Assembly (NCBI RefSeq): GCF_023055435.1
Contig: NW_025964383.1
Coordinates: 10,416,001-10,480,000 of the forward strand
Source: Haliotis rufescens
Taxonomy: Eukaryota
Length of the DNA: 64,000 nt
Reading direction: 5' to 3'
The position numbers and the translations under genes are program-made. Numbering within the stretch: position 1 is the stretch's first letter; every line of letters starts with the position of its first letter. Below the pieces are notes generated by a model. It was given only the letters and a program-made list of their open reading frames with translations, was not told where the DNA came from and did no database searches. Of the stretch, positions 1 to 30,520 are shown one piece after another.

Positions 1-1400
1 TCGCTGACGTGATGCGTTCACGAGCGTCGGTTTACACAACGAACAGGATGTTGGTTTGTGCATCGACCAATCTAATGACTCGTGAGTAGGAATAATTCTT
101 CATATATTAGTCAACATGTATGGTATTCGCGTTTCTTTTGTCAGTGAGTATATCAGAAGCAAAGTTCCCAGTATTGCAGTCAAGCATATCATACAAGGTG
201 ATACGAGGACGTTTATTTTTTAGTGGTCATAGTGAAATATATTTCTTCAAATCATTGAGCACACGAACATATACATTGAACAATACTTTAATCAAAGTAA
301 TTTACATGATTCATCAATACATTAATTGAATGTGATTCCTTGGCATTTAATTGGCTAACGCATTGTGACGTCACAGTCGTACATAGAAAAGCGCCAAATA
401 GCAGGATCTCCATTATTCTTAAAACTTTAAGTACATTTTCTTTGTTGATTTTATCGTGTTTTCTGCACAATATGTATTGTCACACATCCATGGAGTATTG
501 AAGCAACCGCAGTATGCATTTTGTAGTGTGTAATTATACATAAAGATATTTAAATATTCCAAACGGTACTTCCCAAATATATAGTAGAATGTATATTTAA
601 TGCTTATACATCTGAAGAAATAACTTGTTATATACATATACATTGGAAATATATATGATAGACTATCAGGTTTTTTATGCAGCGCGCGTGTTTATAAACA
701 TGTGTACACATATACCGTTCCATTGAAGGCAACGAAATCCATGAACATGGTTTAATTCATCCATGCTGCTTGTAATCCGTTGAATAATACAATGACACAC
801 CTTGAAGAGCATGCTAGTATTCGACCGTTTTGTTATATTTGATCAAATGGACATCAAAATAAAATAAAGTTGTTCGTGGTATTTAGGTATAAGATAATCA
901 AACACACAATTATGCCATTTGCCACAAAGTCATTATACTTTATCATGTTACAAAAAATCGTTATCACGTCATTCGAAATAAAGCTGATGATGCGTTTTCA
1001 TCGTATGTAAGTATACATAGCGATAATCACAGATTGGCTTTTAAAAATAAGAAATAAAACATCGATAATGTGATTACTACTATTTCCACACTGGATAACG
1101 ACATTAAATAATTTACAATGGTGATGATGGAAGCATGCAATTATGAATATGCTAAACTTAGTACAAAGTCTTTAATAGGCATTTAGAAGTTTGAAGAACA
1201 TGAATACATGACACATTTTATGGATATCAACTTCTTTTATTCTTTGTCAAGACGATTCAAAGGTATTTCGTTTGTGAATAGAGTTGGAATAAAGGAAGTT
1301 GATATTCCTAAAACAGTGTCATGTATTAGTACAGACAACTCAAAGATGATCACCGGTGATAAACATCTGCGTTATAAGCAGTGTTGCTAATTCTGTTGTG

Positions 1401-1698
1401 CTACTGTCTAGCTACCGAAAAAGCCATGGCTTTCTCCAATAACGATTTCTTCCACAGTGGTAATTGTATCTCTTTTCCCGACACCAGCTTCATCTGAACA
1501 GCAGCTAGGCAAGAGTTGTATGCTCCAAACACGGGCCAGAGGTCATCTGCCTGTTCTTCTGTGTCTAGTGTCACAAGTTCAGCTAGGGTGTTGAGGTCAA
1601 ATATAGTGAGGGTGTTCCTGGTACCGTCAAACAGAAGCCCATGTCGCAGTGTGTCAGATGTTCCTGGACTGGTCGACAAAACGTTTTCGTAGCATCTC
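1401..1698 (-). pseudogene. Displaced original 3' half of the A1 SPRY exon (A-type tail EIQLPLWKKSLLEKAMAFSVARQ)
   Basis: Matches A2 31269-31566 and is cut off from the rest of the A1 exon by two 557-bp inserted units. Confidence 0.8.
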
Positions 1699-2812
1699 GA
1701 AAAAGACAACACACACATCTGCTTGGCTGTTCAGCGGATTAAGCTGCTGCATTAACACATGCCTTGGCACTATGTTGGTAAGAACGTTTAGGTACATCTA
1801 ATATGTAACTGTACAATAATTGGCATGCATATATACTTTTTTAAATGGACTGTTTTAAGAAAACAATATGCGAACTTTATCAATCAGTCCAATAAACAGC
1901 CGTAAGAAACACCTCACTGATTATTTATCATCATCTACTCCCACGAAAATTTTCAATAGCAATATAAGCTACAAATCACTCCATTGCTCCCTTCAGCATT
2001 TTTGTCTTTGATTTTAAAATATTTATTTCTTTTCCCGACACCAGCCTTATCTGAACAGCAGCAAGGGAAGAGTTGTATGCTCCGAACACGGGCCAGTAGT
2101 CATCTGCCTGTTTTTCTGTGTCTAATGTCACAAGTTCAGCTATGGTGTTGAGGTCAAATATAGTGAGGGTGTTCCTGGTACCGTCAAACAGAAGCCCATG
2201 TCGCAGTGTGTCAGATGTTCCTGGACTGGTCGACAAAACGTTTTCGTAGCATCTCGAAAAAGACAACACACACATCTGCTTGGCTGTTCAGCGGATTAAG
2301 CTGCTGCATTAACACATGCCTTGGCACTATGTTGGTAAGAACGTTCAGGTACATCTAATATGTAACTGTACAATAATTGGCATGCATATATACTTTTTTA
2401 AATGGACTGTTTTAAGAAAACAATATGCGAACTTTATCAATCAGTCCAATAAACAGCCGTAAGAAACACCTCACTGATTATTTATCATCATCTACTCCCA
2501 CGAAAATTTTCAATAGCAATATTAGCTACAAATCACTCCATTGCTCCCTTCAGCATTTTTGTCTTTGATTTTAAAATATTTATTTCTTTTCCCGACACCA
2601 GCCTTATCTGAACAGCAGCAAGGGAAGAGTTGTATGCTCCGAACACGGGCCAGTAGTCATCTGCCTGTTTTTCTGTGTCTAATGTCACAAGTTCAGCTAT
2701 GGTGTTGAGGTCAAATATAGTGAGGGTGTTCCTGGTACCGTCAAACAGAAGCCCATGTCGCAGTGTGTCAGATGTTCCTGGACTGGTCGACAAAACGTTT
2801 TCGTAGCATCTC
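1699..2812 (-). repeat. Two tandem 557-bp units (1699-2255, 2256-2812), each the B-type 3' half of the SPRY exon plus B 3' flank
   Basis: Identical junction catctc|gaaaaagacaac at 1698/1699 and 2255/2256. The unit matches B1 ~10507-11075. Confidence 0.9.
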
Positions 2813-5755
2813 ATCTTCTGGCCATTGCTCCAGATCTTTGCACAGCCTCCTTTGTGTGTAGAGCAGTGTGCGATGACGAGACACATGGATCCTTTCTGCC
2901 CGCTCATGCAGTAGCTGTTGTCCAGGCATGCTCCCCTAGCCACACCTATTTCCATAAGTAGGCCATGTTGCATTTCAGAGGCCACGTTGAAGTCTGACTC
3001 CACCTCCCAATAGCTGACTTTGTCTTTGGGTAGAGGTGTAATAGCCGTTGTCCCAACATACTGACCTAGTTTCCTTTCTTGGGAGACTTTACTATTAACC
3101 AGGAACCCTTTGTTGTTGACATGGACCTTATTGTTGTTGATTCTTTCCACGTCAAACGACAAAGCAGGATCTGCAATGTACCAACACCTTGTTTCTGCAT
3201 ATCATTTGGTATCATTATTTTTTTCTAAATTGTAATCTCTGAATTCTTTACGCTCGCACTATTTACTGGGTCTGTGGCTAGTCTGGTGGTTAAAGCGTTC
3301 ATTCGTCACGCCGAAGACCCGGGATCGATCCCCACATGGGTACAATGTGTGAAGCCCATTTCTAATGTCCCCCGCCGTGATATTGCTGGAATATTCCCAC
3401 TCACTGTAATATGTTCTAATCATAATTAATGTTTCTACGCTGACATTAGTGTTTCCGTGTCTGCATAAAGATACGTTCAGTGTAATAAAAAAGATTCCAG
3501 TGCATGTTTTGTTTCATTCAGTTTCCCCATGCGTATTATTTCGTTTTATTACAGTTATTGATTTGTCTGTAATGCACAGTCTTTAAACTATTAGCTTGGC
3601 GTCACGCTTTTGATGTTGCAGCTGATTCTGAACCAGATTTCACAGAGGCAGATTCTCGTATTTTCTACACCAAATTCAAAATAATTACAAACATACTGAA
3701 ACAACATTTACATATTGTCAGTGATGACAAACACCAAGATATGTGGTAACTAAGAGTGTGTGAGTCCGGCAATATTACGGTGGGGACACAAGAAATAAGC
3801 TTCAGCCATTTGCGTAAAGAGCGAACGCTTTAACCACTATCATCTTCAAAGAAAGCTGCTAACATACAATATAAATGTTTTCAACAAACCCATATACATG
3901 CTATGTAATCGGGATAAATGTTTCTTCACTGAACGTAATTTACCTGAATTAAAACTCAGTCTATATTAGATAAATTATCAAGGATACTCATGAAACCGGA
4001 AAAGGTCAAATAAACATACAATGCATGCATGCAGATCAAATTGTTCATACATTGTGGGATTCCTCTCTGGAGAAACCCTGGTAAACCTGATGTTTTTTTA
4101 CATAAACCTTATTCGTTTTAATCCTTTCAAAATCAAATGCCGAATTCGGACTTTAGATATAGACTAGGAAAATCTAAGGACAATATTTGAGTCAAGCAGA
4201 TTATCATGCATGTTATTTTAAAATTGTTAATTATTAAAGCTATTGCCTTCATTATTATGACATATTAACAACATTGAATTCAGAACAAACAAGTTGTTGA
4301 TGTGTTTTCCACGTTGCTCCGTTTGCTTCAAATGTGCGAAAAAAAGAAACACGTTTGGTGTGGAATGATTTCACTTACACAATCTCTCTTCTACTGGCTC
4401 AAGGTGACGTTTCTCGGCTGAAGAAGAAGTTAATGCAAATATGATCCAAGCAAACGTGTAAAGGTATGTTCATTTCGTTTGGCATTATACAGTTTCAATG
4501 TTACCATAGCACAACAATTTTATCGTTTTAGACAATGATATTTCAATCCTATCTCTGCTGTTGTTCGGGCGTCACATAAGTTACAAATTTGATTTGACAT
4601 TAAATCTCTTTTTAATTGTTTAAAAATACCATTATCAAAAATTTCTTTCATTTATTTCTAACCTGAGCCCTTCTTGTCGTTTTCCTTGTCTTGGCTGTGA
4701 ATGTCAGACTCAGTTGTTCCAATGGATGAAATAACTTCTTCAAGATGTTCCATCTGGTCCTTCGAGAAGGACAGTTGCATTGCTTCAACCTCAGCCCCCG
4801 CAACATCCTCAGCTAAACAGTTTTCCGTCTGTATTTTCATGCATTTCTCCAGCATCAGGATATCACTGGGAGGCCCATATTTCAGCAGTTTTTCAGTAAA
4901 GTCATGTGTGTCCTCACATTTACGTAGAACGTTTTGCAATCCCAAGTTAATCCTTGAAATGTCCACCAGGTTAAGTCTATGCTTGGAGTCTAATTCTTCT
5001 TGTAGTTCTGCTTCACGTTTGGTGAGGCACACCTTTAGATGATGGAATCTATTTGACAGGAGTGTCTTTGAGTCGTTGTAACTTGCTTCCGAATTCTCTC
5101 GCGTTGTTTTGGTTTCTGTCATCGCTTTCCGGATTTCTTGTAACTTTTCTTCTAATTTAGCTTTGCGTTGTTTCGTCGTGCTTTTCCCCACATTAGCTGC
5201 ATCTTCCAGTTCCTGCACAACACAATGCTTATGTTCTGACCGTACGCATTTAGAACAAATGAGAGTCTCACAAGTTTCATCGTAAAGGTCAAGAAAGTAC
5301 TCATCGTGATCAGTACAGAGGGCACTGGGGGGCGTCAGTCCACCTGCTTTCATATCTCCCACTGGCAACATCTGATGGGTCCTGGACGTCTTAACTTGGT
5401 TGTGAGCAGATTCACATGACCTACAAAACATGGCCTGGCAGTTCCTACACCATGACCTGGCAGTCTTTGCTGAATTACCGTGGTCTTTATTGGTGCATGT
5501 GACCTCTGATGGCTTCAATTTGAGGGTTGAGGATAGTATATCCATTTCAGTGACATGGTCCTTTGGCAAAACGATCGTTCTTTTGTCGAAAGAATATCTA
5601 CAAAATGAACACTGTACCGTTTCGCATTCAGCTCCGATGCAATCAGCACACACAGGATGTAAACAAGGGAGAAGGTATGGCTCGGCTCCTTTGTATCTGA
5701 ATGGCGTCTCACAAGCACTGCATTGTGGGATTCTAACTGTGATTTTGGTGGCCAT
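2533..5755 (-). CDS. TRIM-like E3 ligase A1 (RING-Bbox1-Bbox2-coiled coil-B30.2/SPRY-like), ~589 aa, with a B-type C-terminal tail
   Basis: Predicted coding exons are 5755-4663, 4417-4379 and 3170-2533, joined by GT-AG phase-1 introns (1770 nt in total). Motifs: C3HC4 RING CSAC..PCLHPVCADC..CSFC; B-boxes WCRNCQAMFCRSCESAH and CTDH..CETLICSKCVRSEH; SPRY-like YWEV..EIGVA..WPVFG. A probable 5' UTR exon has its donor at 5912. Confidence 0.85.
3270..3405 (+). mobile_element. tRNA(Asp-like)-derived SINE, family 1 (paralog at 32030-32162)
   Basis: A-box-like tagtctggtgg, cgtcacgccgaagacccggg..tcgat head, and body gatattgctggaatatt. Confidence 0.85.
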
Positions 5756-6619
5756 GATGTTGGAAACCTTATAAACGAAAATTAGGTATATGTACAAAAT
5801 CAGTATGTCTAAGATTATAACAGGTAATTAAAATAATGTACCTTCAGGACGTCATTTAACCTGTATGGAGATTATTATTCATATATAATTTTTAAGGCGA
5901 TATTCTCCTTACCAGTATAATTCAGCTTCGATGTTCGTATTGCGATGGTTGGATGATGTTGTTCAAAGGCTTTCGCTTAGAAATTCAGACATTAGACTCC
6001 GTTAGCTACCGTCGTGGAGACACCATCCACAGGACGTGTATGACTGGGGGCGTTTGTAAACTTCGAACCACAAAATGACAGCCGACACTCTGATAAGCTG
6101 TAGTTGATGGCCGTGTGTCACATGATAGGTGACACACTCTGACCGACTAAGCTGATATGCAGTGCAAAAGTGTTTTTTTTATCTACACTAAATGTAAAGC
6201 TAAGGACTGTAACATGGTCATTATTATCGAACTTAATTTAATCATCTCTCTAAATATATCTCCTGTACCCTCATTCAGTCACGAGTACCGTACTGACTAC
6301 CCAACTATATATGTATACTTAATGAAGGCTGTACTTGTCAAAATCTGACACATTTTAGGTTTTAATGGAGACATTGCAGTGGTTTTAGATACCATGAAAA
6401 ATATTATTTCTTAACCTGCAAAACAACTGGATATTTGTGATCAAATCGTTTACAACGGGTGGAACTTGTAGATGTCCACTTGCGGTGTGTGTGTTAATGT
6501 CGTGTAACTCTGCATCCAGGTTTACTACTACATACAACATTAAGTATAGCTAAGTACAGATATTATTAAGGTCATCATTGGCGCTGCTCCTCCAAAATAG
6601 GTTGTACCTACGCTCTTCC

Positions 6620-7575
6620 CACTTTCCAAGTTTAACCCGACTGTTTCAGCACTTTCCATCCCCCAAGTATAACCCTATTGCTTCAACTTTCTTTCCACTT
6701 CCAAGGTTTAACCTGACTGCTTCATCATTTTACACTCCACAAGTATAACCCGACTGCTTCCACTATTTACACTTCCTAAGTAGACCCGATTGCCGTCACT
6801 CTTTCCACGTCCTAAGTATAACCCGACTGCTTCCACTGTTAACACTTCCTACGTAGATCCGATTGCTTCCACTTTTTCGACGTCCTAAGTATAACCCGAC
6901 TGCTTCCACTATTTACACTTCCTAAGTAGATCCGATTGCCGTCACTCTTTCCACGTCCTAAGTATAACCCGAATGCTTCCTCTATTTATTTTTCCTAAGC
7001 AGATCCGATTGCTTTCACTTTTTCCACATCCTAACTATAACCCGACTGCTTCCACTATTATACTTCCTAAGTAGATCCGATTACCTTCACTTTTTCCCGT
7101 CCCCAGTACAATCCGACTGCTACCACTATTTAAAGTCCATAAGTAGATCCGATTGTTTTCACTTTTTCCACGTCCTAAGTATAACCGGGCTGCTTCCACT
7201 ATTTACGCTTCCTAAGTAGATCCGATTGCTTCCACTTTTTCCACGTCCTAAGTATAACCCGACTGCCTCCACTATTTAGGCTTGCTAAGTAGATCCGATT
7301 TCCTTCACTTTTTACCGTCCTAAGTATAACCCGACTGCTTCCACTATTTAAACTTCCTAAGCAGATCCGATTGCTTTCACTTTTTCCATGTCCTAAGTAT
7401 AACCCGACTGCTTCCACTATTATACTTCCTAAGTAGATCCGATTACCTTCACCTTTTCCCGTCCCCAGTATAATCCGACTGATACCACTATTTAAAGTCC
7501 ATAAGTAGATCCGATTGTTTTCACTTTTTCCACGTCCTAAGTATAACCCGACTGCTTCCACTATTTACACTTTCC
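6620..7575 (+). repeat. Tandem array of alternating 36/37-bp subunits (~73-bp higher-order unit)
   Basis: cctaagtataacccgactgcttccactatttacactt alternates with cctaagtagatccgattgcttccactttttccacgt. Confidence 0.9.
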
Positions 7576-8744
7576 ACTCCCGCTCTGTACACTGCTTCCT
7601 CAGTGCTTTAACCCTTGGCAGTGCTTCCCTACTTTCCACCTCCCGAAGTGCTTCCGCTCTTTGTACTGCTCACAGCCTTACCTGAGTCCTGCCACTCACT
7701 GGTTCGATATGCCAGGTGGTTGATGTCGCACTTTAATATGCGTCAACCAATTACACGAATTATTCCACATTTATACTTCTCGTCAATTCGAATCCTTGTA
7801 TGCCCTGATTATGTTTCTGGGTTTTTCAACACTATTACAGTGTTTGTGGATTTCACCAAAGTGGTAAACGTTTTAGACCTACCCAACAAGCTGACAAAAT
7901 TACACCAAGTTCTTTCAAACGTTAGCTTGACCTCAAATTACCTTTACTCCTATCACTGCCCCAGATTTTAGTATGTGTATAAGTGTTAAAAAAAACTTTT
8001 CAAAATATATTAAATTGTCAGAGTGCTTCAAAACCTCTGCCGTAGAATACCAGAATGAATCCGTCCTCCCCATTATACTCTTCCTTATGGGTTTACGTTA
8101 AAGAAAACATCTGTAATCTGCACCATCTTGTGCTCTGGTCTCGCATTAAGCTCTGACATAACTGATATACTGTTCAACGCGGCGTTAAAAACAACTTACT
8201 CAATCACACACGTTGTGATTCAACACTTTACACTTCCTGGACAGTTGTACCTTATATGTCTTTAGAGATAAGCCCTCAATCATCATGCTGTGCATATTGA
8301 CTCATGTGCACTGCACGTCGCTGCAAGTCGTGAGCTCTATTATACAGACCTGTGCTCATCCATATATGGGCCAACTGCTTGAGTAAAGACTCAACACTGC
8401 ATTATCTTTTTATCTTGATTTGAATGGTGTCACGAGAGAGTGATTGGACTGTGCGATGTCTGTAATGTGTGTAGATTATGTAAGTGGCTTGTTGTGTGCC
8501 AGGAGTGCGTGGTGTACAACAGAAAGTGACCTGATTATCAGGATAGCCTATGAAAATGTTCACGCAGCTTCGGTCGATAAGGCTGTTGTGAAATTTTCCC
8601 AATATGTTTTAGTAAATATCTGCATAGTTCTGGTAAATTTGCACATTCACTGTAACACATTATTTTCTAGCATACATATTTATTACACACACACGGGTTG
8701 CTGAAGGCCAATTCTAACCCGGATCTTCACAGTATATACAAATA

Positions 8745-8781
8745 CATTATATATATATACATTATATATATACACATACCT

Positions 8782-8824
<43 letters not shown>

Positions 8825-8905
8825 TAGATATAGATAATATAGACATATGTATGTAGATAGAAAGATAGATATAGATATATAGATATGTAGATAGATAGAT
8901 ATATA
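8745..8905 (+). repeat. (TA)n/(TAGA)n microsatellite
   Basis: Direct reading. The paralogous site is the N gap at 37648-37800. Confidence 0.95.
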
Positions 8906-9627
8906 CATCGAATAAGTATGACAACTACGATTTCTCTCACAATTGAACTATGTGTGGTATATGTGTAAATGATATGACACGAAGTTATAGATAGTGTTTT
9001 GGCAGTCGTCATTGTACGTACATGTATATGTCAAATCACCATCATTATTGCAGAAAGTCATATGTAGTATGAATTATTGTGCAAACACTTCTGGGCCAGG
9101 TATTCTAATGATTATTCTGCGTATGTTCATAGTCGTTTGTATTGTGAATAACTGTGTATTTATAGCTATTCTGAGTGTGCTCTCATGCTTGATTGTATGT
9201 TGGATAGTTCATGGAAGATCAACAGTTTTGAGTATGTGTATTCACGCTGAATGTAAGTTGAATGGTAATGTGTAGCGGTGTGTATGTATTGGAGTATATA
9301 ATGTCCGTATATCAGATGACGACCGAGTCCAGTAAACGTCTCGGGTGAGAGGAGGTGAGGTGAACTGGGGTTTAACTTCGCGTTCATGATTTTTTTCCTT
9401 ACATAGCGTATGTGTGTATGCTCACTGATATACCATGCCTCCGTTTGACATGTCTACCCCACTCAAACACGGTATACTGACTCCGAGCCGACTTGCCCTT
9501 GTTTTAGCCCCTTAATGACGAGCGCCAGGCAGGGTAACATCAAGTACCTTTGTTATGACGCGTCCGGGGATCTAACCAACGACATTCCGTTCCCGGCCAG
9601 ACGCTCTTTCCAATCGATCACGGAGGC

Positions 9628-9670
9628 GGTGAGGTGAGGTGAGGTGAGGTGAGGTGAGGTGAGGTGAGGT
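9628..9670 (+). repeat. (GAGGT)n microsatellite (paralog at 38578-38625)
   Basis: Direct reading. It sits at the tail end of an adjacent SINE. Confidence 0.95.
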
Positions 9671-10795
9671 GCAAAATTTCACTTGGATACCCAACTTATT
9701 AATTGTCTCCGGGCAGACCAATCCTTGTTTTATCCCCTTCCTGCCTAGCGCCTGGCAAATATCATCTTTTAGCTCCTTTTGGTATGACGCGACCGGGGAT
9801 CGAACCCCGGATCTTCCGCTTTCTGTGAAGGCGCCCTATCCACTCGACCAGGGAGGCGGTCATAGTCATGAAGGAGTTTTAGTGATTTGTGCGTAATCTG
9901 ATAGAGTATCTGTGTATGTATGAGCGGCAGGATGAGAGTGGGTTCAAATGAAACTCAATTGGGATGATTAAATCATTAAGATTAGTTTCAAAAGTATTAT
10001 GAGTTCATATCTGGCTAGTTTTTGCTCCCTGTTTGGAGAATAGCTGACAAAGAAGCGACAATACCCTTTCCAAAGTCATAAGAAGCGCTTTTTATTATTC
10101 TTTGTATCATATACATGCAGCGAAACAATATAAACATATCCTTGCACATAACCTTGAACATATATTTATCTTTAACCATCAACATAACGCAGGTACAAAT
10201 AATGTATTTTACACCTTGTATACACACACACACACCAATTTTGTCATTTTAACTTCATATCTATAGTTTAACCACAGAGAGAAATCATGACAGTTTGTAC
10301 AGTCATTATGATGAAGATGGGGAAAATTTTGATAAATGTGTAGATAAGAAAACTGTATATGTGGTGTACATTACTTACATATACGGTATGTTTATCATGT
10401 ATCTTGTGGCTTGGAATGAACTTTTAGATTTTCACAGTTACGAATTGAATTAACAATGGCGAAACGGGTAAATAGTAAAATAATACACAAGTACAATTCT
10501 TGGCATGAAACAGACAACACACGCATCTGCTTGGCTGTTCAGCAGATTAAGCTGCTGCATTAACACATGCCTTGGCAATATGTTGGTAAGAACGTTTAGG
10601 TACATCTAATATATAACTGTACAATAATTGGTATGCATATACACTTTTTTAAATGGACTGTGTTAAGAAAACAATATGCGAATGTAGATAGTGATGTTAT
10701 CAATCAGTAAAAAAAACAGTCGTAAGAAACACCTCACTGATTATTTATCATCATCTACTCCCACGAAAATGTTCAATAGCAATATAAGCTACAAA

Positions 10796-13739
10796 TCACT
10801 CCATTGCTCCCTTCAGCATTTTTGTCTTTGATTTTAAAATATTTATTTCTTTTCCCGACACCAGCTTCATCTGAACAGCAGCAAGGGAAGAGTTGTATGC
10901 TCCGAACACGGGCCAGTAGTCATCTGCCTGTTCTTCTGTGTCCAGTGTCACAAGTTCAGCTATGGTGTTGAGGTCAAATATAGTGAGGGTGTTCCTGGTA
11001 CCGTCAAACAGAAGCCCATGTCGCAGTGTGTCAGATGTTCCTGGACTGGTCGACAAAACGTTTTCGTAGCATCTCATCTTCTGGCCATTGCTCCAGATCT
11101 TTGCACAGACTCCTTTGTGTGTAGAGCAGTGTGCGATGGCGAGACACATCGATCCTTTCTGCCCGCTCATGCAGTAGCTGTTGTCCAGGCATGCTCCCCT
11201 AGCCACACCTATTTCCATAAGTAGGCCATGTTGTTGCATTTCAGAGGCCACGTTGAAGTCTGACTCAACCTCCCAATAGCTGACTTTGTCTTTGGGTAGA
11301 GGTGTAATAGCCGTTGTCCCAACATACTGACCTACTTTCCTTTCTTGGGAGACTTTACTATTGACCAGGAACCCTTTGTTGTTGACATGGACCTTATTGC
11401 TGTTGATTCTTTCCACGTCAAACGACAAAGCAGGATCTGCAATGTACCAACACATTGTTTCAGTAGAATACCTTGATTCTGTAAATCATTGAGTATCATT
11501 ATTGTTTTCTCAACTGTAGTCTCTTTTCTTTACATTTATATGATTTATTAAGCATTCTCTACTGACATGAAGGTAATATTGTGATAACCATTGTTGATCA
11601 TCTGCGCATCTACTTACATGACAAAACATGATTGCCAGTGATCAACTCTTCTCCGTTGTCCTCTTCGTTTTCTTCGTTGTGTTCTCTTTCCTTTTCTTCT
11701 TCGGTGTCAGGATCCATGTCAAGGGGCTCCGTTTCTGCATCATGAAAATGTTTAATGTTATGTAAGCCAATTCAGAGAACGTTTTGTGTTTTTTATTTAA
11801 CTTTGTCATATTATTACATAACAGTTATTTGTTTTTCTTTAATGCACAATTCATAATGTTGAAATTATCCTTACCCAAATCAGCACGAGGTTTGAAAAAC
11901 AAAAGTTCAATAAATCAGTTCAGATGTGTCAGTACCTGATATCATGTCTGAAAGTTTACTCTCGTCCACTGTTGAAAACATTGGAAGATAGTTTCCCTGT
12001 GCTTGGGGATCTGAAACATAGTGCATGTCAATGATGCGAAAGCACACACACACACACACACATTTATATATTTATTATGTTTTCATTTCAAGGTAAATCT
12101 TAAAGGATGTCATCATCGTTGCTTTCATAAAATATTATCAGCTTTCACGTGTCTAGGTTCTCCTCCTGTAAGCGACAGCTGTTGACATAAATCACAAATG
12201 TTCTCAACAACCCATAAACATGATTGCGGATTGTTCATGACTGGAACAAAAACTAAATGTTGTGTTTGCAACTCGATGTTAAAGCATTTCTCAACCATAT
12301 GACATGAATCAGAAAGGTAATACTGACAACCGTTACCTATGAAAATGCAGAATGTACAAGTATTTAAACATCCTAAAAATAGCAATGCTGAGGGATTTGT
12401 AAAATACCCTGATGTATTTAGTTCTATAACACACACAACCATCTTGATGTAATGCTCTATTGATGAAACTTTTGCAACATAATATGTTCCAGTGCTCCTG
12501 TGAGAGTTCACGACCAAATCACAATGAATATTATTATTCAATGCTCTTTCAGAAAAAAACAAAACATATGTAATCTTTTTGGGACGGCTTTCATTGGAAT
12601 TCAACAAAAATTCAAGCCATACCTTTCTCAGAAGTTTCAGTATCACTGTTTGGTCCCTCAAAATTGGCATACAAATTCATAAAGCTGCCATCATCCCCCT
12701 CCTTGGTCTCAATGTCGCACACGGTTTGTAAAACATTTTCAAATGATTGTATTTTCTCCCTCGAAAATGTTACATGAACTGGTACAACTTCAAACATCTC
12801 GGCCTCCTCAGATAAAGCCATTTCTGTCCTGAACTTCACATACTTCCTCAGCATCAGGATGTCGCTCGTGTTTCCATGCTCCAGCAGTTTCCCTGTGTAA
12901 TCATGGGTGTTCTTGCATAACCTGACAATCCGCCTGAGATTGTTACTGACCCTCGCAGCCTCATCCATCTCAGACAGGTGTCTGAACTCCAAGGTTTTCC
13001 TCAATTCCGCTTCTCGTTTTGTAATCAAGTCACGGAGGCTGTTAAATCTTTGTGACAACAAATCCTTCAAATCGTTGTGCCTATCCTTCATCGTCTCCTG
13101 TTTTGTGTTTGATTCGTCGATCATATCCTTGAAATGTTGTAACTTGGCTGCCAATTTACTCTTATCTTCTATTGTGTCTTCCTCCACGGCACCAGCAGCC
13201 TCGTCTAACTCCTCAGTCTTACAATGCTTATGATTTGACCGAGCACATTTTGAACAAATGATAATCTCACACGTTTCATCGTAAAGATCCAGAGCATACG
13301 ATTCATGGTCTGGACAAAGCGACTTCTGTGAACGCACATCCGCTGGCTTCATGTCCTTCAGAGACACCATCCCATGGGTGCTGGAACTCCTCACCTGATT
13401 GTGTGCAGCTTGACACGATTGACAGAAGAAGGACTCGCAATCCTTGCACCAGGATACTGCATCCAGGCTATGATCTTTGTTGGTGCATTTGATCTCCGAT
13501 GGCTTGTGTTTTAGGGTAGTGGCAAGGGTTTCTACTTGAGTGACGGTATCATTTAGGAAAATGAATTGCTCTTTGTCAAATGACTCTCTGCATAACAGGC
13601 ATGTTATTGTTTCACGTTGAACGCTAATGCACCCAGCACAGGCTGCATGTAAACACGGAAGAAGGTACGGATCTATCCCTTTGTACTTGTATGGCTTCTT
13701 ACAAACACAACAATGCGGACACTGAGCTTTAGACGCCAT
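10796..13739 (-). CDS. TRIM-like E3 ligase B1 (RING-Bbox1-Bbox2-coiled coil-acidic linker-B30.2/SPRY-like), ~649 aa
   Basis: Predicted exons are 13739-12623, 12010-11936, 11734-11618 and 11436-10796, all GT-AG phase 1 (1950 nt in total). RING: CCVC..PCLHAACAGC..CLLC. A probable 5' UTR exon has its donor at 13938. Confidence 0.85.
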
Positions 13740-14579
13740 GATATATGATCCTATACGAACCACTGGAACGACACAGAAAAGACAACACATTTATATAAAG
13801 TGAATACATATAAGCTAAACTATATCAACCTACATTTAAGACGTTATCGATTATTACATTACTGCTTACTCTGTCAATAGACGTTATTTCGTATATAGAA
13901 AATCCAGACATTGTATCACCCAGGTGTTTAAAACTTACCTGGATGGGACTCACGGTTTAGAAACATGTACAAACGTACCCCTCCTGTTCTCGGTAATGTC
14001 TAATATGAATATAGATGTCTTGCGTTGCCTGTTGGATAAACCTGTCTCGACTGAGACCCACCCTTCTCGCAAGAAATAACTGACCCGAATCAGGTAGTTG
14101 GAGATGCAGCGTGTGTGTCAGACTGTGCCCTTCACTGGCGCGTTGACAAAAGATATGTCACCCGCTCTGTCGACAGATGATACTGCACAAGGTCGCGCAG
14201 GTTATTTTTGACTGTGGCGTCTGTCCAGGTGGCAACACTACACACTGATTACACCAAGAGAATAACCTAGGACGTGGTCTATTTCATTTAAGAGTAACTA
14301 TGCATATTTTGTGCAGGTTTATATGCGCCCCGCTACGGATTGTGGGCAGGCCTATACACTTCATATTAACATACAACTCTACATAACTTTGCAACAACTG
14401 CACTCAGTGTGTATGGCTTCAGGGTAGTAGATACTAGTACATGCCGTGGACGTATCACAAGGGTCTCCTAAACAGTAATGTGATTGTTGTATCAGCCTAC
14501 GAACATGTAGATAATTATGATGTTGAGTGACAGGTGAAACTCAATTGTTTGCGAGTCTGACGCGATCTCAACTGGACTT

Positions 14580-17085
14580 GTTAGCCTTCGAGGAGTACAC
14601 ACATCTGATAGCCTTCAAAGAGGACACACATCTGGTAGCCTTCGGTGAAACCACAATTTGATAGCCTTCGGTGAGGTTTGTTGTTTAACGCCGCATTCAG
14701 CAATATTCCAGCTACATGATGGCTGTCTGTAAATGATCGAGTCTGGACCAGACAATCCAGTGATTAATATCATGATCATCGATCTACGCAGTTGGGATAC
14801 GATGACATGCATCAACCACGCGATCCCGTTAGTCGCCTCTCAAGACAAGCACAGTCGTCTTTTACGGCACGCACGGGTTGCTGAAGACCTATTCTACCCC
14901 GGATCTCCACGGGTCCCTTCGGTGTGGACACACGTGTGAAACCCTTCGGAAGGGATACACATCTGGTAGCCTTTGCTGAGAACACACATCCGAAAACCTT
15001 CAATGAGAGCACATATTCGATAGATTTCGGTGAGGTCTCAAATCTGATAGCCTACGGTGAGATAACACATCTGGTATCCTTCGGGGAAAACTGACATCTG
15101 GTAGCCTTCGGTGAGGAAACATATCTGATAGCCTTCGCTGAGAACACATATCTGGTAGCCTTCGCTGAGAACACACAACCGAAAACCTTCAGTGAGAGCC
15201 CATATTAGAAAGACTTCGGTGAGGTCACACATCTGGTAGCATTCGCTGAGAACACACATCTGGCATCCTCCGATGAAAACACACATCTGGTATCCTTTAA
15301 TGAGAACACACATCTGGTAGCCTTCGCTGAGAACACACATCTGGTAGCCTTCACTGAGAACACACGTCTGGTAGCCTTCGATGAAAACACGATCTGATAG
15401 CCTTTGGTGAGGTTTGTTGTTTAATGCCGCACTCAGCAATATTCCAGCTATATGATGGCTGTCTGTAAATGATCGAGTCTGGACCAGATATCCCAGTGAT
15501 TAATATCATGATCAACGACCTACGCAGTTGGGATACGATGACATGCATCAACAAAGTTCGCGAGCCTGACTACCCGATCCCGTTAGTCGCCTCTCAGGAC
15601 AAGCACAGTCGTCTTTTACGGCACGCACGGGTTGCTGAAGACCTATTCTACTCCGGATCTCCACGGGTCCCTTCGGTGTTGACACACGTGTGAAAGCCTT
15701 CGGAAGGGATACACATCTGGTAGCCTTCGCTGAGAACACACATCCGAAAACCTTCAATGAGAGCACATTTTCGATAGACTTCGGTGAGTTATCAGATGTG
15801 ATAGCCTTCAGTGAGATAACACATCTGGTATCCTTCGGGGAAAACACACATCTGGTAGCCTTCGGTGAGGACACATATCTGATAGCCTTCGCTGAGAACA
15901 CATATCTGGTAGCCTTCGCTGAGAACACACATACGAAAACCTTCAGTGAGAGCCAATATTAGAAAGACTTCAGTGAGGTCACACATCTGGTAGCCTTTGC
16001 TGAGAACACACATCAGGTATCCTCCAGTGAAAACAAACATCTGGTATCCTCCAATGAGAACACACATCTGGTAGCCTTCGCTGAGAACACACATCTGGTA
16101 GCCTTCACTGAGAACACACATCTGGTAGCCTTCGCTGAGAACACACATCTGGTAGCCTTCGCTGAGAACACACATCTGGTAACCTTCACTGTGAACACAC
16201 ATCTGGTAGCCTTCGCTGAGAACACACATCTGGTAGGCTTCGCTGAGAACACACATCTGATAGCCTTCGGTAGGGACACACATCTAACCGCCTTCGGTTG
16301 AGACACACATCTGGTAGCCTTCACTGAAGACACACATCTGGTAGCCTTCGGTGGGCACACACATCTTATCGCCTTCCGTGGGACACACATCTGATAGCCT
16401 TTGGTAGGGACACAAATCCGAAAACCTTCAATGAGAACACACATTCGATAGACTTCAGTGAGGTCACACATCTGATAGCCTTCGGTTGGACACACATCTG
16501 ATTGCCTTCGATGATAACCCACATCCGAAAACCTCCAGTGAGAGCACACATTCGATAGACTTCAGTGAGGTCACACATCTGATAGCCTTCGGTGAGAACA
16601 CACATCTGGTAGCCTTCGGTAAGGACACACATCTGATAGCCTACGGTGAGATAACACATCTGGTATCCTTCGCTGAGAACACTCAACTGGTATCCTTCGC
16701 TGAGAACACACATCTGATAGCCTTCGGTGAAAACACACATCTGGTAGCCTTCGGTGAATTTACACATCTCATAGCCTTCTTTATCTGATAACCTTAGTTG
16801 ACACACATGCGACACACGTCTGATAGCCTTCGGTGAGGATACACTTCTGATAGCCTTCGGTGATAACACACATCCGAAAACCTCCAGTAAGAGCACACAT
16901 CTGATCGCCTTCAGTGAGAACACACATCTGATAGCTTTCAGTGAGAACACACATACGATAGCTTTCAGTGAGAACACACATCCGATAGCCGTCGGTGTGC
17001 AGACACATCTGATAACATTAGTTGACACACATGCGACAGCATTCGATGAAAATACACGCCTGGTAGCCTTCGGTGAAGACTTCAA
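14580..17085 (+). repeat. 27-bp minisatellite (acacacatctggtagccttcgctgaga)n with two embedded SINEs
   Basis: Direct reading. It generates the repetitive EGYQMCVLS and KATRCVFSA ORFs. Confidence 0.95.
14676..14916 (-). mobile_element. SINE-like family 2 (head gacccgtgaagatccggggtagaatagg); further copies at 15412-15670 and 43592-43852
   Basis: Dispersed ~250-bp repeat that shares the gctggaatattgct..cggcgttaaa 3' end with family 1. Confidence 0.85.
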
Positions 17086-17799
17086 AACAATCAATGACAG
17101 AAACAATATTCCGTCGTTGGCAGCGGGTGTTTACCTTACAATTCGGCTTTATTAATGGTGGCCAAACACGCGCTCTACCACAGAACAGTGTTAGCATGAG
17201 TGCTCTAGAGTTACTTCCCCTCCACTGTAAAGCGATTTAGGCATAACTCGCCTGCGTTGTAGAACTAATTACATGAACTAAATTATACGCTACATTACAA
17301 CACAATTCAGTTGTCACACGGGGAGGTAAGTTGAAATGGGGTTTAACGTCGCCCAGTCATTATTTTCGTTATTATAGTTATCATTGTGTCTGCTGGGGAA
17401 GGCGGTGGGTTAGATCCCCGGCCGCGTCATACCTAAGTTCTTGTTTTTACCCTACCTGGCGCTCGGCATTAAATGGGTACAACAAGGACTGGTATGCTCG
17501 GAGTCAGTATACTGTGTCTAAATGTGGTATTCATGGTAAACTGTGTCATGGTATCTCAGTGGGTTGGCGCTATAAATCGGCATTAGTCATGTGTATGCAC
17601 GTCGCTATATAAGTGCAATAATCTTGAATGCTATGTTAAACCCCATTTCCCATCCCCTATGCCATGATGTCTAATGCCGGTTTTATAGTTTTAGCCTAAT
17701 AAAATACCATGCAGTTTAGCAAGGATACCTCACTCAAAAACTTAACACTGCCTCAAAGCCGACCAGTCCTTCTTTACCCCCATAATGCAGAGGACCAGG

Positions 17800-21166: not shown

Positions 21167-21312
21167 NNNNNNNNNNNNNNNNNNNNNNNNNNNNNNNNNN
21201 NNNNNNNNNNNNNNNNNNNNNNNNNNNNNNNNNNNNNNNNNNNNNNNNNNNNNNNNNNNNNNNNNNNNNNNNNNNNNNNNNNNNNNNNNNNNNNNNNNNN
21301 NNNNNNNNNNNN
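21167..21312. other. Assembly gap (others at 37648-37800, 45612-45828 and 47970-48115)
   Basis: Runs of N. Confidence 1.
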
Positions 21313-21324
21313 TCATTGTCACCA

Positions 21325-24300
21325 TCACGACAGGGCCTTAACAATCACTGCTTTCTTCTCCTCTGTCATGTTGATGTCGCTGCCCACTACAAGTGTCATG
21401 CTGACAGAGACATACTCTGGGTTATACACCCCGAACATCGGCCACAGTGGCTGACTAGAGTCTACATTGTCTAACGTCGATATCACTTTGTTCTCCTTCA
21501 CATCAATGAAGACAATCTTCTTCCTGGCGTCATCATAGACACCACCGTAATGTAGCGTGTGTGATGCCCCTGCTGTGTTGGGGAGAGTGTCAGGCAGACA
21601 CAGCACACGCTTGTCCTCCTTACATGTCTTTCTGCATATCCCGCCGTGTGTAGGACAGTGGGAGACCGCCATGCTGCAGGAGCTGGGTTCTCCACTGATA
21701 GAATGATACACGTCCCTCTGCTCCTCCCTGCATACACCCACCTCGAGGATGAGGAGGCCTTCTGTTAGTGGTTTGTTCAGACTGACCCTGGATTTCATCT
21801 CCCAGTACTGGGGACAGCCAGCCCGGGGGAGGGGGGCAGCGCCACATGTGCCACTGTACTTCTTCAGTCTCCCCTCCCCTGCAGGTATGGTGTCCGACTT
21901 CCTGTTGACCAGGTCTCCTTCTGTGTTGATGTGGACGCTGTCGAGCTTGACTCTGTCTTTGTCATATTTTACATCTATACCTAAAAAATATGAATAAAGT
22001 AAACTTTCCAACACAAATACATTGTATCTCTGTCGCATCATCATGTCTTACCTAATTTCCTGATTTGCCCTTTTAAACACCAAGTTCAAATTATCCGAAA
22101 AGACTGATACCATGTTTTCTTTAATTGGTAATATCTGAAACTGTCAGCTTTGACTCGAGAATACATAAGTTTTGAGTTTGTTTGTTTTTTTCAATTTAGA
22201 AAGTTTTCATTCCACGGCTTTTTTGTAGTTAACCCGCCATGTTATGACTGGAATACGCGTCAAAACGTTGTGACAACCAGCTTAGCCACGGAAATATTAG
22301 TATGTAAACCGAACTTCTAAATCATATAGTTATAGTCGTTGAATAAAGATTGTCTTGATACATCTAGAGTAATGATTTATTAGAAACTGCAGGTGTGCTA
22401 ACAATAAATGGAATATATTTGGAGTAGGGGTCACGGTCTGACATCTAGGCACTCACAATAAATGTGTATTTAGTAAGTCGATTGGGCTGGTTGAACTGGT
22501 TTATATTTGCTGAATGATTGGAAATGAGAGTTTGCAGTATGGAGTATGTAAGGTCATGATGAATGAGTCCAACAAACACTGTAGTTCAAACCCCATAGAG
22601 TATAAGCAATGTTACTGATGGTGTTATCAAAAACGAGGGACATGTGAGTGTGAAGCAACTGCAAATTCGTCAAAGCCTGTTATAATATGTCAATGAGTGA
22701 AATTTTGTGTGCACACACTTTAGCACAAGTAAACAACAATATTAGGGTGAGTGAGTGAGTTTGGTTTAACGCCGCTTTTACCAGTATTCCAGTTACATCT
22801 CGGCGTGTCAGCTTAATGTTGGAGGAAAGCCCGAAGTGATGCAGGTTCCAGACGATTACCACCTTGGAGAAACCCACGAGCACGGGTATGGTGCTGACAA
22901 ACCTAGAGACATAATCGGGGCGAACCGGGATTCGAACCCACAATCAAAGGTTTCTGGTGTGCCCAATGGACGTAATTCTGCACAACGAATCGCAGCGCCT
23001 TAGACGACTGGGCCAGCCGTGCCCCCTATCAATATATGATCTGCACAGTCAGGCACTTCACGCACTGCATATAGCTAATCTCATTCTACTCGTCACATCA
23101 GACAAGTATGGATTTTGTAGAGTCTATCAGTTCAATTTATCAACGTTGTCATAACACTCTCCCTGGTGCAAACATACTTACAGAGAAGAGGAACAGGAAA
23201 AGGGGCATCTGAGGCAGGCAGAAGGTGGACAGCTACACTGGACACGCACTCTACAAAACAAAATGTCAAATGTATACTATTGCCATATGGTATTGTGGTA
23301 TAATGAACTGTTCAAGCCGACTTTAACAGCATTTCACTTACATCCAGGTGTGTCAGCTTAAAGTTGAGTGAAGCTAAGGAGAGGACTTGGTGTAGATTGT
23401 GGACGTTTGCCACTATGCACAGGCAACAATAATGGGTATAATCAAATCATACTTTGAGATTCGATCCCCCAATGGGCATACCCTTTCACAGCATAGGTGC
23501 CCAACTCTGAAGAGTGCACAGTGAATTACAGAACACGAGCTCATTTGGCAAAATATGTTATTTGCTCACATCTCTTTCATTTTTATAACTATGTTTGTCA
23601 TACTAGCTCAAATTCGTGTTTGCCATGTAACCAATATTGAAATGATGCTCACCTAAAGACTTCATTGTTGACGACAGCTGTTCGATCTGTTGATCGCGAT
23701 TCTTTATAACCTTAAATCATAATTAATAAGAATAATGTATACAATGTACATCACTCGCATGTAATGAGGAAGTCTTGGTAAGGTAGCCTTTTGGTTAACT
23801 GGTTACCTAATCACACCAAAAACGAGAGAGGTCTAATCCTCTTAATTCCACCATATCGTATGATACTTTATATATCTCAAAATAGATTTATACTTTGAAC
23901 TTGTGGTTTTCTGGTTTTAGAACGGATTGAGTAAGGTGAATTACATTTATATTGAACATTTCAAGTTATATAGCAGGTGTCAACAAACTGTACCTGCAGA
24001 TGTAACATGTTATCAGCTTCAAGCTTATTTATCTTCGTTTTCATAGCATTCATAGTAGATCCCTCTGTAATAACAAACACATGTAATATATGAGTAAATG
24101 GAATATTTAACAATTGCAACGCGCATAAAAATAAGGTACACATGCATTACACAGGACACCTACCTACCATATAGGTCATGTGACGTTCATATAACACAAT
24201 ACTCGCGCGTGATGGAAATGACAACGGGGACATTTAGATTGAAATGAACATTAAATGTGAGTTCTATGCATCACTTCCGGTCTCGTAAATCTAGACTTAG

Positions 24301-26874
24301 TACTTTATTTTTGTTCAAATCGAAAAAAACTAAACTTGTAATGGCTCGTTATTTTTTTTGCCTATGGATTTATGAGGTGTGGAACATCGGAGCGTAAGAG
24401 AAATCTGAAAGGTAGGTGGTTCCTGAGTTGTCCATTTCTGCGTGACGTCACAAACCTTTGATCAACAGAGATCTGGGGCATTACATCTCGGCTGCCTTTG
24501 AAGATCTAATCAATCAATAGACTAATTAATTAACATCCAATTCAATCAGCTTGTCATAACTGTTTATTCCTTTTTATCCTTATACTTACTGTACATTTGG
24601 CTTTATTACCCGTGTGTTTTATTACCTTGTGCTATGTGTTATTCTTACTGTACATTTGGCTCCACCCAATTACATGTGTGCTACTTATTATTTGTTACCT
24701 GTTCTCAATGTTAATCTGCTGCTTATCAGAACATGACCTGTGTCTATACCTCTCATTCACTTGGTTGTTGTCACTCCAGAATCAACATCGAAACGTCGCT
24801 ATTTGTAATAAACTAAAAAATGTTCACTTCCACGAAGGGGGACAACGTTAACAAAAGACATGTTCACCTATTTCGAGGAATTTTTTAAAATGTTCAGACG
24901 TCTCGGACAAGTTCACTGCCTTCTTACCTCTCATTGTGCGAGCAAACAATCCCCATGGAGAAGACAATGATATTGTCAGACCCAGCCCTCCACGCGCTAC
25001 TATTGATAAAATGACAGTCTGAACGACTTCGCTCTTAAGTATTTACTTAAGTACTTATGTTAAGTACTTACTGATATGTTTATTGAAAACCCTAAACCCA
25101 ACAACTACTACTAACCCTAATTCAGTTATAACAAAGGCCCAAGGGTTAAATATGTCGGTATAAAGAACCCAAGGGCTAAAGAAATTAACTGAAGCGGCAG
25201 GAAAATGGCGAATGCTTTGGTTGCCAAGGAAGTAGTTCGCGCATAACAGAATATGGCGGAAGGTGTCCGGTATCAAACATTCTTTCCAAAAATAATACAT
25301 AGAATATGACTGAAAATGGTAAGCTTCATGTAAAGCTAGCTATAGTGATGCTGATGTGTATGTCTGAGTTTCTCCCAGCAGACTTGGTTACCTAGATTAC
25401 AAGTAGATCATCTCCGGGAACAGAGGCAACTAGCAACGAGCTCTATAATGATTGGGAATGCTCATGGACACTGAATGGGGTAGCCTTGTGGTTAAAACAT
25501 CGGCAGCTCACGCCATAGATCCGGGTTCGATTCCCTTCATGGGTTCAATGTGTGAAGCACATTTGCTGTTGTACCCCGCAGTGACGGCACTGGAATATTG
25601 CTAAAAGCAGAGTAAAACCACATTCACTCACTCAGGGACACTGACATTATTCGTATTTAACTCAACATTCCTAATAAACTGTATGCAGTGTAATGGAACA
25701 GCTCCAGGTACAGGATACTAAACACTTAGCTTTTCTTTAGCTCGTTACAATATCAATTTATTGTTTCATCATCCAAGAAATAATCAATACTGTACCTACC
25801 TGGGTTACTTTCTGACTGAGGGTCCATGGGTACGTAGTACCCTCCAAAGGAAGAAATCAATTGCTTCAGGTCTGTAAAGTCCTGTCTAGATAGAGTGACT
25901 GCAGCCTCTGTATCTCTCACTTGGGGAAGCTCAGTTGTAATACATTCATTGGTTCTGGATACTACTGTCTTTCTGGCCCTGAAGAGTGCGTCAACACTAG
26001 ACATAGCAGCGAATTTCTGACAATACCCAAGTGCTGTGTCACATTTGGCTTCCTCCATTTCCAACTTGGATAGCCGTGAATTATTCATATCATATACAGC
26101 TCTGAAACTTTGATCCAGTTGTAGAGAAACCCCTTCTTCTCGCTGTTTTAAAGTAGTTCTCAGGTCAGAAAATGTATGCTTTAAGAACTCCTTCCCTTCC
26201 TCCTCTTTCCCCTCTGACATCTTGACAACTTCTAGTACCTTGTCCCTGATGGCTCTGATTGTTTCTATCTTCTTAGAGAGGCCTTTCTGTCCTTCCTCCA
26301 GTACCGTCTCCTTCAGATGTTGACATGCTGTGGCTATGTCATTCACCTTGCAGTCGCTATGATTCTCCTTACATTTGAAACAGATTCTTTGCTCACATGT
26401 TTCGTCATAGAGCTGTAGAGGATGATCAGCATGTTCTGTGCAGTAGACAGTCTTAGGAGTAGGTTCTCCGTCAGAAGACGTCAAGTTTTCCAATGGCACA
26501 ACTGCATGTGACCTTGTTATCTTCATATCCTCATGGCTGGCCTGACAGTGCTCACACAACAAGGCTTCACATTCATCACACCAGGACATGGCTTGGTTGC
26601 CGTCATCTTTGTTGGTACAAAGCACAGCGGAACCATCGTTTTCAGCAGTTTGGTGGAAGATATCTTTGATGACAACGACATCGGGAGGAAAATCCGTTTG
26701 TTCTTTATCAAATGTTTCCTGGCAGATGTCACACGTCAGTGTATCAAGGGTGTCAGTGTCTAGGCATGTCTGACGCACCAAGTGGAGATATGGTAGGAGG
26801 TGTGGATCAGGCCCACCATACTTGTACGAGGTGTGTCACACTCTACACTGGGGTAGCTTCACTGCAGTCGCCAT
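21325..26874 (-). pseudogene. Divergent TRIM-like gene C with an in-frame TGA at codon 13 and a degenerate RING (pseudogene or RING-less TRIM)
   Basis: Exons 26874-25800, 24064-23994, 23710-23653, 23250-23182 and 21980-21325 join in frame (1929 nt) with GT-AG sites. The N-terminus reads MATAVKLPQCRV*HTSYKYGGPDPHLLPYLHLVRQTC. B-boxes, coiled coil and SPRY-like exon (QYWEM..LEVGV..LWPMFG) are intact. A possible 5' UTR exon donor lies at 28652. Confidence 0.75.
25477..25633 (+). mobile_element. SINE family 1, diverged, in an intron of gene C
   Basis: ggggtagccttgtggttaaa..ccgggttcgattccc..cactcactca tail. Confidence 0.8.
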
Positions 26875-29765: not shown

Positions 29766-30357
29766 GTTGCGCAAACGGGCATAACTAAAACAATTGTCAA
29801 TTCGTTGCGTAATGGTTCACATATATTTCCCCATATATTATATATATTTCAGATGCCTTTTAAAGCACATCGGGACGTGCGGAATTATACAATATGATTG
29901 AACACATTTAACTGTGTCTTTGGTATATTTTTAGATGCAAGACATATGTAAAATAAAAAATTATTTCTGAGGGATTCTTTGACGAAGTACTTGAAATCAT
30001 ACACGCACTCTGATTGGTTTGTCGTATTTTCGCACATAACATTCATCGAGAGGGGGACGAGTCTTCTTATAGGTTACGGAAAGGGGCGAGTGCTGACGAA
30101 TGGCGCCAAATAGCAAGATCTCCATTATCCTTAAAACTTTAAGTACATTTTCTTTGTTGGTTTTATCGTGTTTTCTACACAGTATGTATTGTCACACATC
30201 CATGGAATATTGCAGTAACCGCAGTATGCATTCTGTAGCCTGTTGTTATACATAAAGTTATTTAAATATTCCAAACGGTACTTCCCAAATACATAGTAGA
30301 ATGTATATTTAATTCTTATACATCTAAAGAAATAACTTGTTATATACGTATACATTG

Positions 30358-30520
30358 GAGTGAGTGAGTGAGTGAGTATAGTTTTACGCCGCTTTTAGCA
30401 ATATTCCAGCAATATCACGGCGGGGGACACCAGAAATGGGCTTCACACATTGTACCCATGTCGGGAATCGAACCTGGGTATTCGGCTTTAACGCTTTAAC
30501 CAATAGGCTACACGATGGCT
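30358..30520 (-). mobile_element. SINE family 1, present only in duplication copy 2
   Basis: (gagt)n tail and gggaatcgaacc B-box. Absent at ~648 in copy 1 and flanked by tatacatt repeats. Confidence 0.88.

Follow-up and report, generated by a model that had tools for sequence, protein, structure and literature searches.

A block of about 17 kb is present twice in the window, the 64-kb stretch of Haliotis rufescens DNA that was analyzed here, at positions 391-17750 and 30103-45968. The two copies are 92-97% alike, and each consists of one gene A and one gene B on the minus strand (A1 and B1 in the first block, A2 and B2 in the second). A third related gene sits between the two blocks. One of the N runs stands in place of a microsatellite that is present in the other block, which speaks against scaffold gaps as their explanation.

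The first exons of these genes encode B-boxes together with weak RING and coiled-coil matches in Pfam, and the nearest named proteins are TRIM45-like models of Haliotis. The H. rufescens models P0011, P0005, and P0009 were matched by inspection to B1, B2, and A1, respectively. In the first coding exon of A1, the zf-B_box profile reaches 33.1 bits against a Pfam cut-off of 24.1, in two stretches. The matches to zf-RING_5 (residues 12-54, E = 8e-4) and to TRIM_CC (E = 0.013) fall below the Pfam cut-off, and the Cys/His pattern of the RING is visible in the translation. An immune role for these abalone TRIM genes is an assumption from the family name only. The features of the locus are as follows.

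1401-1466, minus strand: original A tail, now stranded, with 21 residues and a stop in a frame that has stayed open (ORF)
1467-1698, minus strand: repeat c3, the native A 3′ half; equal to the units over 1587-1698; Cys variant in common with black-abalone A
1698/1699, no strand: non-homologous junction, copy 2; the contigs of run X2 break at 1698 and 1704
1699-2255, minus strand: second unit, behind the stop, with repeat c2 (2024-2255), second B tail (1976-2023), and B flank (1699-1975)
2255/2256, no strand: non-homologous junction, copy 1
2256-2532, minus strand: B-type 3′ flank, copy 1, 277 nt, with a 12-bp deletion and without AATAAA or ATTAAA
2533-2580, minus strand: B-type tail (15 residues) and new A1 stop; predicted terminal helix (ORF; helix 200-210, pLDDT about 95)
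2581-2812, minus strand: repeat c1, 232-bp 3′ half of the domain, in frame, with donor-type letters, identical to c2
2813-3170, minus strand: native 5′ part of the A1 last exon (PRYSPRY), with A-type letters as in A2 at 2876, 3001, and 3097 (comparison; fold)
4380-4419 (approximate), minus strand: possible 13-codon micro-exon used by RefSeq models; peptide in P0004 and P0009, located in the A1 intron
4663-5755, minus strand: A1 first coding exon with RING, two B-boxes, and coiled coil (ORF; zf-B_box above the Pfam cut-off, with the RING and TRIM_CC matches under it; splice phase compatible with the last exon according to the A2 model)
10091-10096, minus strand: first AATAAA behind the B1 stop, outside the copied segment, 416 bp past the breakpoint
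10507-11075, minus strand: B1 segment homologous to the unit, a relative of the donor and not the donor (20/556 substitutions and a 12-bp indel versus the unit)
31269-31927, minus strand: A2 last exon, the comparison copy without insert and with an A tail (sequence comparison)
39459-40011, minus strand: B2 segment homologous to the unit (18/541 substitutions versus the unit)

Structure and donor of the insert in A1

The first-pass annotation had described two 557-bp units within the SPRY exon of A1 that are absent from A2, and the comparison of the last exons agrees. The B-type units lie at 1699-2255 (u2) and 2256-2812 (u1), and the A2 exon is free of them. Each unit combines 232 bp of domain sequence (the 3′ half), 48 bp that encode the B tail and its stop, and 277 bp of B flank. 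The doubling in tandem was also described correctly; u1 and u2 differ at 2 of 557 sites (1789/2346 and 1966/2523), with both new letters in the in-frame unit. The resulting direct repeat of 789 bp at 98% is far above chance expectation.

The 64-kb window contains no copies of the junction motif other than those at 1698/1699 and 2255/2256. Microhomology at the internal junction amounts to 0 bp with the B1 flank and 1 bp with the B2 flank, which bears out the claim that each unit has one seamless and one non-homologous end. At the outer ends of the insert the homology is exact, over 163 bp with B1 (2683-2845) and over 112 bp between the unit and c3 (1587-1698). The geometry is that of a circularly permuted B segment between direct repeats, an arrangement that is not specific to a circle mechanism. 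The original A tail is stranded behind the A1 stop, and its frame (1401-1730) is open, as had been noted.

Identity between genes A and B is 46% in the N-terminal part and 95-97% in the last domain, which indicates an earlier homogenization of the exchanged region. They share about 590 bp at about 97% identity, and A2 differs from B at 15-19 of 593 nucleotides. The B genes of H. rufescens and H. rubra are 75-77% identical in the domain and 74-75% in the N-terminal part; the two parts of B are equally far from H. rubra B, and the flow was therefore from B to A. The last domain of A had thus already been overwritten by that of B, and of this region A retained only its tail. Among 19 protein matches there was no A orthologue from either H. 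rubra or H. asinina.

In the black abalone, H. cracherodii, there are models for A with an A tail (P0004), for B (P0014), and for an A body with a B tail (P0008). The last of these is an automatic gene model, seen as protein only. P0008 carries the B variants of its own species along the exon, whereas the 5′ half of A1 retains A-type letters, a difference which suggests that the two tail swaps are likely separate events. The chimerism of A1 is less special in this setting: every A gene already has a B-lineage domain, and the black abalone has a model that combines an A body with a B tail.

The units had been reported as copies of gene B at about 10507-11075. Their B-type origin stands, with a match including gaps of 94.4% to B1 (10507-11075) and 91.9% to B2 (39458-40011), but B1 itself is not the donor. 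In the alignment of the unit to both B genes, which the first-pass annotation had proposed as a check, there are 20 substitutions in 556 positions between the unit and B1 and 18 in 541 between the unit and B2, compared with 12 in 552 between B1 and B2. B1 was rejected as the donor because its distance from the unit exceeds that between B1 and B2, and B2 is not the donor either. The donor is likely a third B haplotype, because the units diverge from B1 and B2 more than these do from each other. Twelve substitutions and the 12-bp deletion of the units are found in neither B1 nor B2. A DYWP motif had been taken to ally the units with B1 rather than B2. The DY codons are indeed common with B1, through two adjacent bases only, but across the whole unit six informative events are shared with B1 and six with B2 (one alignment-edge column was dropped). 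A contig from run X5 (record 24) aligns to 1699-2023 with 0 gaps, differs there at 10 letters, and is preceded by 46 letters that do not resemble the junction. Since this contig combines a flank of unit length with a non-junction context, an ordinary B allele of the short-flank type is likely to exist.

Predicted protein and 3′ flank of A1

The last-exon frame of A1 is open over 2533-3170 and finishes at a C-terminus of ...EINILKSKTKMLKGAME, as expected from the earlier claim that a B-type tail replaces the A tail without closing the frame. Relative to the A2 product, 15 B residues stand in place of 21 A residues, and the unit brings three further substitutions in the 3′ half of the domain. 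A Pfam scan of the last exon gave no match, and the Pfam SPRY cut-off was passed by 2 of the 26 homologues scanned. The best hit in a PDB sequence search had an E value of only 1.3, and the search for near-length homologues gave 0 of 74 candidates. The B-tailed A1 domain is predicted to fold as a full PRYSPRY (pLDDT 94.3), and its best PDB structure matches are the PRYSPRY domains of MID1 and TRIM25 (E = 1e-8 to 2e-8, TM 0.60-0.65, 10-18% identity), so the name SPRY given to this exon was well chosen. The swapped piece is the predicted terminal helix, and an alignable tail is found at this position in other Haliotis family members as well. The fold of the A-tail domain, obtained with 22 sequences, reached a pLDDT of only 62.5, too low for a structural comparison of the A and B tails.

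Whatever the origin of the insert, a different product can be envisaged in which the B tails are spliced out and the A tail follows three partial repeats. This is the form of the RefSeq model P0009 (715 aa), and an AG acceptor is available in every repeat. However, such splicing requires a GC donor that agrees poorly with the splice consensus, the same acceptor sits within the normal exon of A2 and B, and the repeated half-domains would not fit the single PRYSPRY fold predicted here. We regard this product as quite improbable, and P0009 as an annotation trap in which the A1 insert is spliced into an improbable triple-repeat protein.

The first-pass annotation had also held that A1 ends with the 3′ UTR of B and that UTR regulation would thereby be swapped. 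The B flank was carried along, but its 277 nt contain no AATAAA or ATTAAA, and the sole AATAAA of the unit falls in coding codons. In A1 the next AATAAA downstream lies 1297 nt away from the new stop, compared with 165 nt in A2. Judging from the sequence, transcription of A1 would likely continue across the two units and the stranded A tail. Because the units end 416 bp before the first AATAAA of B1 (at 10091), the predicted 3′ UTR of A1 would be lengthened and chimeric, and the proposed swap of regulation is not upheld.

Evidence for the allele in sequencing runs

The complete A1 allele was found in none of the 24 runs listed; the best run contained 0.62 of 74 words, compared with 0.49 expected from A2, B1, and B2 together. 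No RNA run among those listed carries the A1 allele. The contigs of four of these runs (X1, X2, X5, and X6) were compared over positions 1-2023. No contig that bridges the junction was present among the contigs listed for the four runs, a list of 32 pieces with 7265 more beyond it. The bridging contig is expected to be about 65 nt, which is below the size of the listed contigs. A search for the junction pattern in metagenome contigs gave 0 matches and is uninformative for animal DNA.

The contigs from X1, X5, and X6 continue through both breakpoints into other sequence, and these runs therefore document native alleles and not the absence of the junction. The contigs from X2 behave differently. 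Record 15 (219 nt) and record 16 (171 nt) both match over their full length; the former stops exactly at 1698, and the latter begins at 1704, immediately behind position 1703, where the unit has a letter of its own. The next base is identical in all four native contexts of the window. In a graph simulation with k = 31, a break at 1698 was obtained only when the junction allele was present. Assemblers generally remove plain SNP bubbles, and breaks that last would then reflect diverging paths. In the two bins around the junction, the depth in X2 was 133.1 and 70.4, of which 86.1 and 37.4 were explained, respectively; the listed pieces account for all of the depth in these bins in X1, X5, and X6 but not in X2. 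The depth ratios were not taken as copy numbers, and the depth bookkeeping of X2 closes with or without the junction.

The contig breaks in X2 are an indirect sign that the junction is real. Of the 24 sites listed in the range 660-1510, 13 have only non-A1 letters in X2, including 1506 and 1510, about 190 bp from the junction. This hints that the junction in X2, if present, lies on a background other than the downstream haplotype of A1, although contigs drop variants and the missing A1 letters are thus no proof of absence. A B contig of X6, which is an RNA run by guess only, extends 34 letters beyond the breakpoint; this weak hint was not counted.

An artifact of assembly, with the insert or its second copy absent from the animal, is very unlikely. 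The near-duplicate of 17 kb in the window could represent uncollapsed haplotypes, and the lack of a bridging contig among those listed fits an artifact too. Against this, the units carry substitutions and a deletion that B1 and B2 both lack, an assembler would meet no overlap at the junction on which to misjoin, the two units differ from each other, and the X2 contigs break at the predicted bases. On account of the private variants, the blunt junction, and the X2 breaks, we consider it highly probable that the structure of the A1 insert is real. The second copy of the unit is less secure. As a structural allele, the insert is probably real and probably polymorphic. The RefSeq model P0009 contains the same triple repeat, probably from the same sequence, and is not independent.

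Origin of the insert

We tentatively favor a blunt tandem duplication in a B allele, followed by ectopic transfer into the near-identical last exon of A. The starting point is the A gene described above, with a last domain already derived from B and a tail of its own. A blunt 557-bp tandem duplication in a B allele other than B1 or B2 would have created the sole non-homologous junction, and unequal exchange between the repeats would have provided an additional copy. A conversion tract or double crossover that began in homology at about 2683-2875 and finished in homology at 1587-1698 may then have carried two units into A. The outcome would be a complete PRYSPRY with the last helix of B and a longer, chimeric 3′ UTR that runs toward the poly(A) site of A.

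Ectopic conversion or NAHR calls for long near-identical homology at both ends of the tract, and this is what was found (163 and 112 bp). The earlier proposal is supported insofar as ectopic recombination between A and B is the probable cause of the chimera. With exact homology at both outer ends, the blunt junction could have been formed outside A. A junction on another background in X2, if present, suits a duplication born in B and transferred later. The points counted in support of this route include the exact outer homology, the flow from B to A, the third B haplotype and the X5 contig, the breaks, unexplained depth, and non-A1 letters of X2, P0008, and the full PRYSPRY fold. A B allele that carries the duplication was not seen directly, and the signs of one are the indirect ones in X2. 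The final sequence is identical under each of the first three alternatives considered below.

One-sided repair is a serious rival, although we judge it unlikely. A break in the last exon of A would have invaded a B allele on the homologous chromosome, copied 557 bp, and been closed by end-joining, and the unit would later have doubled between the 232-bp repeats. This reading accounts for one seamless and one blunt junction, and one-sided invasion is known from plant gene targeting, according to excerpts of PMC9299229. It needs only two events; three are required for the duplication in B and its transfer. The first-pass annotation had named B1, the neighbor in cis, as the template for repair or template switching, and this version fails: the insert is not near-identical to B1 (20/556 substitutions and the 12-bp indel). 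What survives of that proposal is the pairing of a homologous with a non-homologous junction, but one-sided repair is not needed to explain it when both outer ends lie in exact homology. In addition, the junction should be tied to c3, yet X2 seems, indirectly, to branch without the A1 letters at 1506 and 1510.

An unequal crossover that yields an array of B, A/B, and A is improbable. A deletion of about 8 kb would then join the B flank of the chimera to the middle of the last exon of the downstream A, with the unit doubled later. A donor from the other chromosome of the pair is explained by this route, H. cracherodii has models of all three types (P0004 for A, P0008 for A/B, and P0014 for B), and HERC5/6 and FCGR2C arose in the same way, as stated in excerpts of PMC7775381 and PMC6563257. 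However, distinct A lineages are predicted on either side of the insert, and the A1/A2 divergence is 3.4% beside it versus 0.7-4.3% upstream. A stretch of 9% A1/A2 divergence begins about 500 bp from the insert. The step in divergence at the insert to which this route would lead (7.4% versus 2.8%) looked significant at first but vanished in finer windows.

It is very doubtful that a 557-bp circle from B entered A through one crossover within the shared 232 bp, either once as a dimer or in two rounds. The insert does have the form of a circularly permuted B segment between direct repeats, and all markers are compatible with one crossover in the identical 112 bp. This geometry is the whole of the support for a circle, however, and u1 and u2 are not identical (2 differing sites). 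Circles of this size are generally integrated in the germ line more rarely than tandem duplications arise. Extremely unlikely is the further idea of the unit as a reusable tail cassette, excised as a circle by recombination between the 232-bp repeats, which brings the A tail back, and inserted into other A copies; if true, abalone TRIM-PRYSPRY genes would alternate between two C-terminal helices that differ in function, whether in the germ line or also in immune cells of the soma.

The insert in A1 can be placed beside known systems, as these are described in excerpts of the papers cited. Chimeras of paralogues have formed by unequal crossing over in HERC5/6 of bats and rodents (PMC7775381) and in FCGR2C of apes (PMC6563257). 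As in those cases, adjacent paralogues with near-identical stretches trade 3′ parts, and the chimera recurs independently (in abalone, P0008). Whole new genes and domain-scale swaps resulted there, whereas A1 trades a 15-residue helix and 277 nt of flank through a tandem insert that leaves the old tail stranded. Recombination breakpoints within the B30.2 exon were reported for the btr genes of zebrafish (PMC3137616), and possible gene conversion for the rodent Trim5 cluster (PMC6677749). The abalone genes are similar in being tandem RBCC-B30.2 genes that recombine in the B30.2 exon and may be homogenized by conversion. The btr and Trim5 genes are vertebrate genes with antiviral relatives, however, and the abalone domain is a divergent PRYSPRY that is missed by Pfam and has no known ligand or immune role.

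In one-sided invasion or SDSA with end-joining (PMC9299229), homologous and non-homologous junctions surround a few hundred templated bases, which resembles A1. Unlike the events in the excerpts of that paper, A1 has no near-identical template in cis, the insert is doubled, and both outer ends can be read as homologous. In TRIMCyp (TRIM5; zebrafish ftr52), a retrotransposed cyclophilin replaces the whole recognition domain (PMC3137616 and PMC6677749, also in excerpt). In both cases the C-terminus of a TRIM protein is altered by DNA inserted close to the 3′ end of its gene, but in A1 the domain is kept, a homologous tail helix is exchanged, and the insert is paralogue sequence of the genomic type. 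Among the publications listed in searches outside the subscription journals, none deals with these abalone genes, judged by title.

The insert in A1 is likely a new case of a known process, ordinary recombination between last exons that were already near-identical. The change in the A1 protein is small, and no new mechanism is indicated. The locus offers a snapshot of exchange between paralogues, in which the last exons are repeatedly homogenized and identity in the N-terminal parts is as low as 46%. A tail swap of this kind is also found in the gene models of a sister species (H. cracherodii P0008). If the terminal helix sets partner binding or stability, these genes provide a natural comparison of A and B tails in a divergent mollusc PRYSPRY family.

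A probable tail exchange and the divergent PRYSPRY family in abalone

The automatic RefSeq model P0008 from Haliotis cracherodii, the black abalone, is A-type in its N-terminal part and B-type in its last exon and tail. As modeled, P0008 would likely represent an independent tail swap in this sister species. A third TRIM gene was found in the window.

21325-22047 and 25753-26835, minus strand: third TRIM gene, with a divergent PRYSPRY domain as in the A and B genes and a third type of tail

The tail type of this gene is common to 15 other Haliotis models. The divergent abalone PRYSPRY domain is present in 105 representatives (proteins P0035-P0138), and two of the domain homologues, P0044 and P0071, carry a CARD and a B-box. 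The Pfam SPRY cut-off was passed by only 2 of the 26 homologues scanned, and 5 more gave a match below the cut-off. Pfam thus gives poor coverage of a PRYSPRY subfamily of considerable size.

Duplicated block and the 3' flank of A1

The two copies of a block of ~17 kb are 92-97% identical.

391-17750: first block copy
30103-45968: second block copy

These could have arisen by tandem segmental duplication or could be uncollapsed haplotypes, and for the latter reason A1/A2 and B1/B2 may be allelic pairs. The two-exon frame of A2 (31269-34512) is intact, and the sole matching record found for it was P0013, a fragment of 153 residues.

The A1 and A2 copies diverge by ~9% in the distal 3' flank (634-1165). 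The letters of A2 predominate in the compared sequencing runs (20 of the 24 listed sites); one contig from run X1 is identical to A1 across 836-993. The inverted repeat at 1203-1327, with arms of 27 nt, encloses the first AATAAA of A (at 1236). Contig depth over 1203-1327 exceeded 21,000 in three DNA runs, and the segment is likely a high-copy MITE-like element within the 3' flank of A.

Repeats and N runs

6614-7567, 14579-17080, 50699-51954, 52513-53455, 57977-59597: long minisatellite arrays
21167-21312, 37648-37800, 45612-45828, 47970-48115: N runs of 146-217 bases each

At least one of the four N runs stands where the other ~17-kb block has a microsatellite, so these runs may represent masked sequence and not gaps in the scaffold. 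Several of the five minisatellite arrays yield long, repetitive open frames. A putatively SINE-like repeat of 120-170 bp occurs at 3275-3395 and at ~10 other sites in the window, in both orientations.
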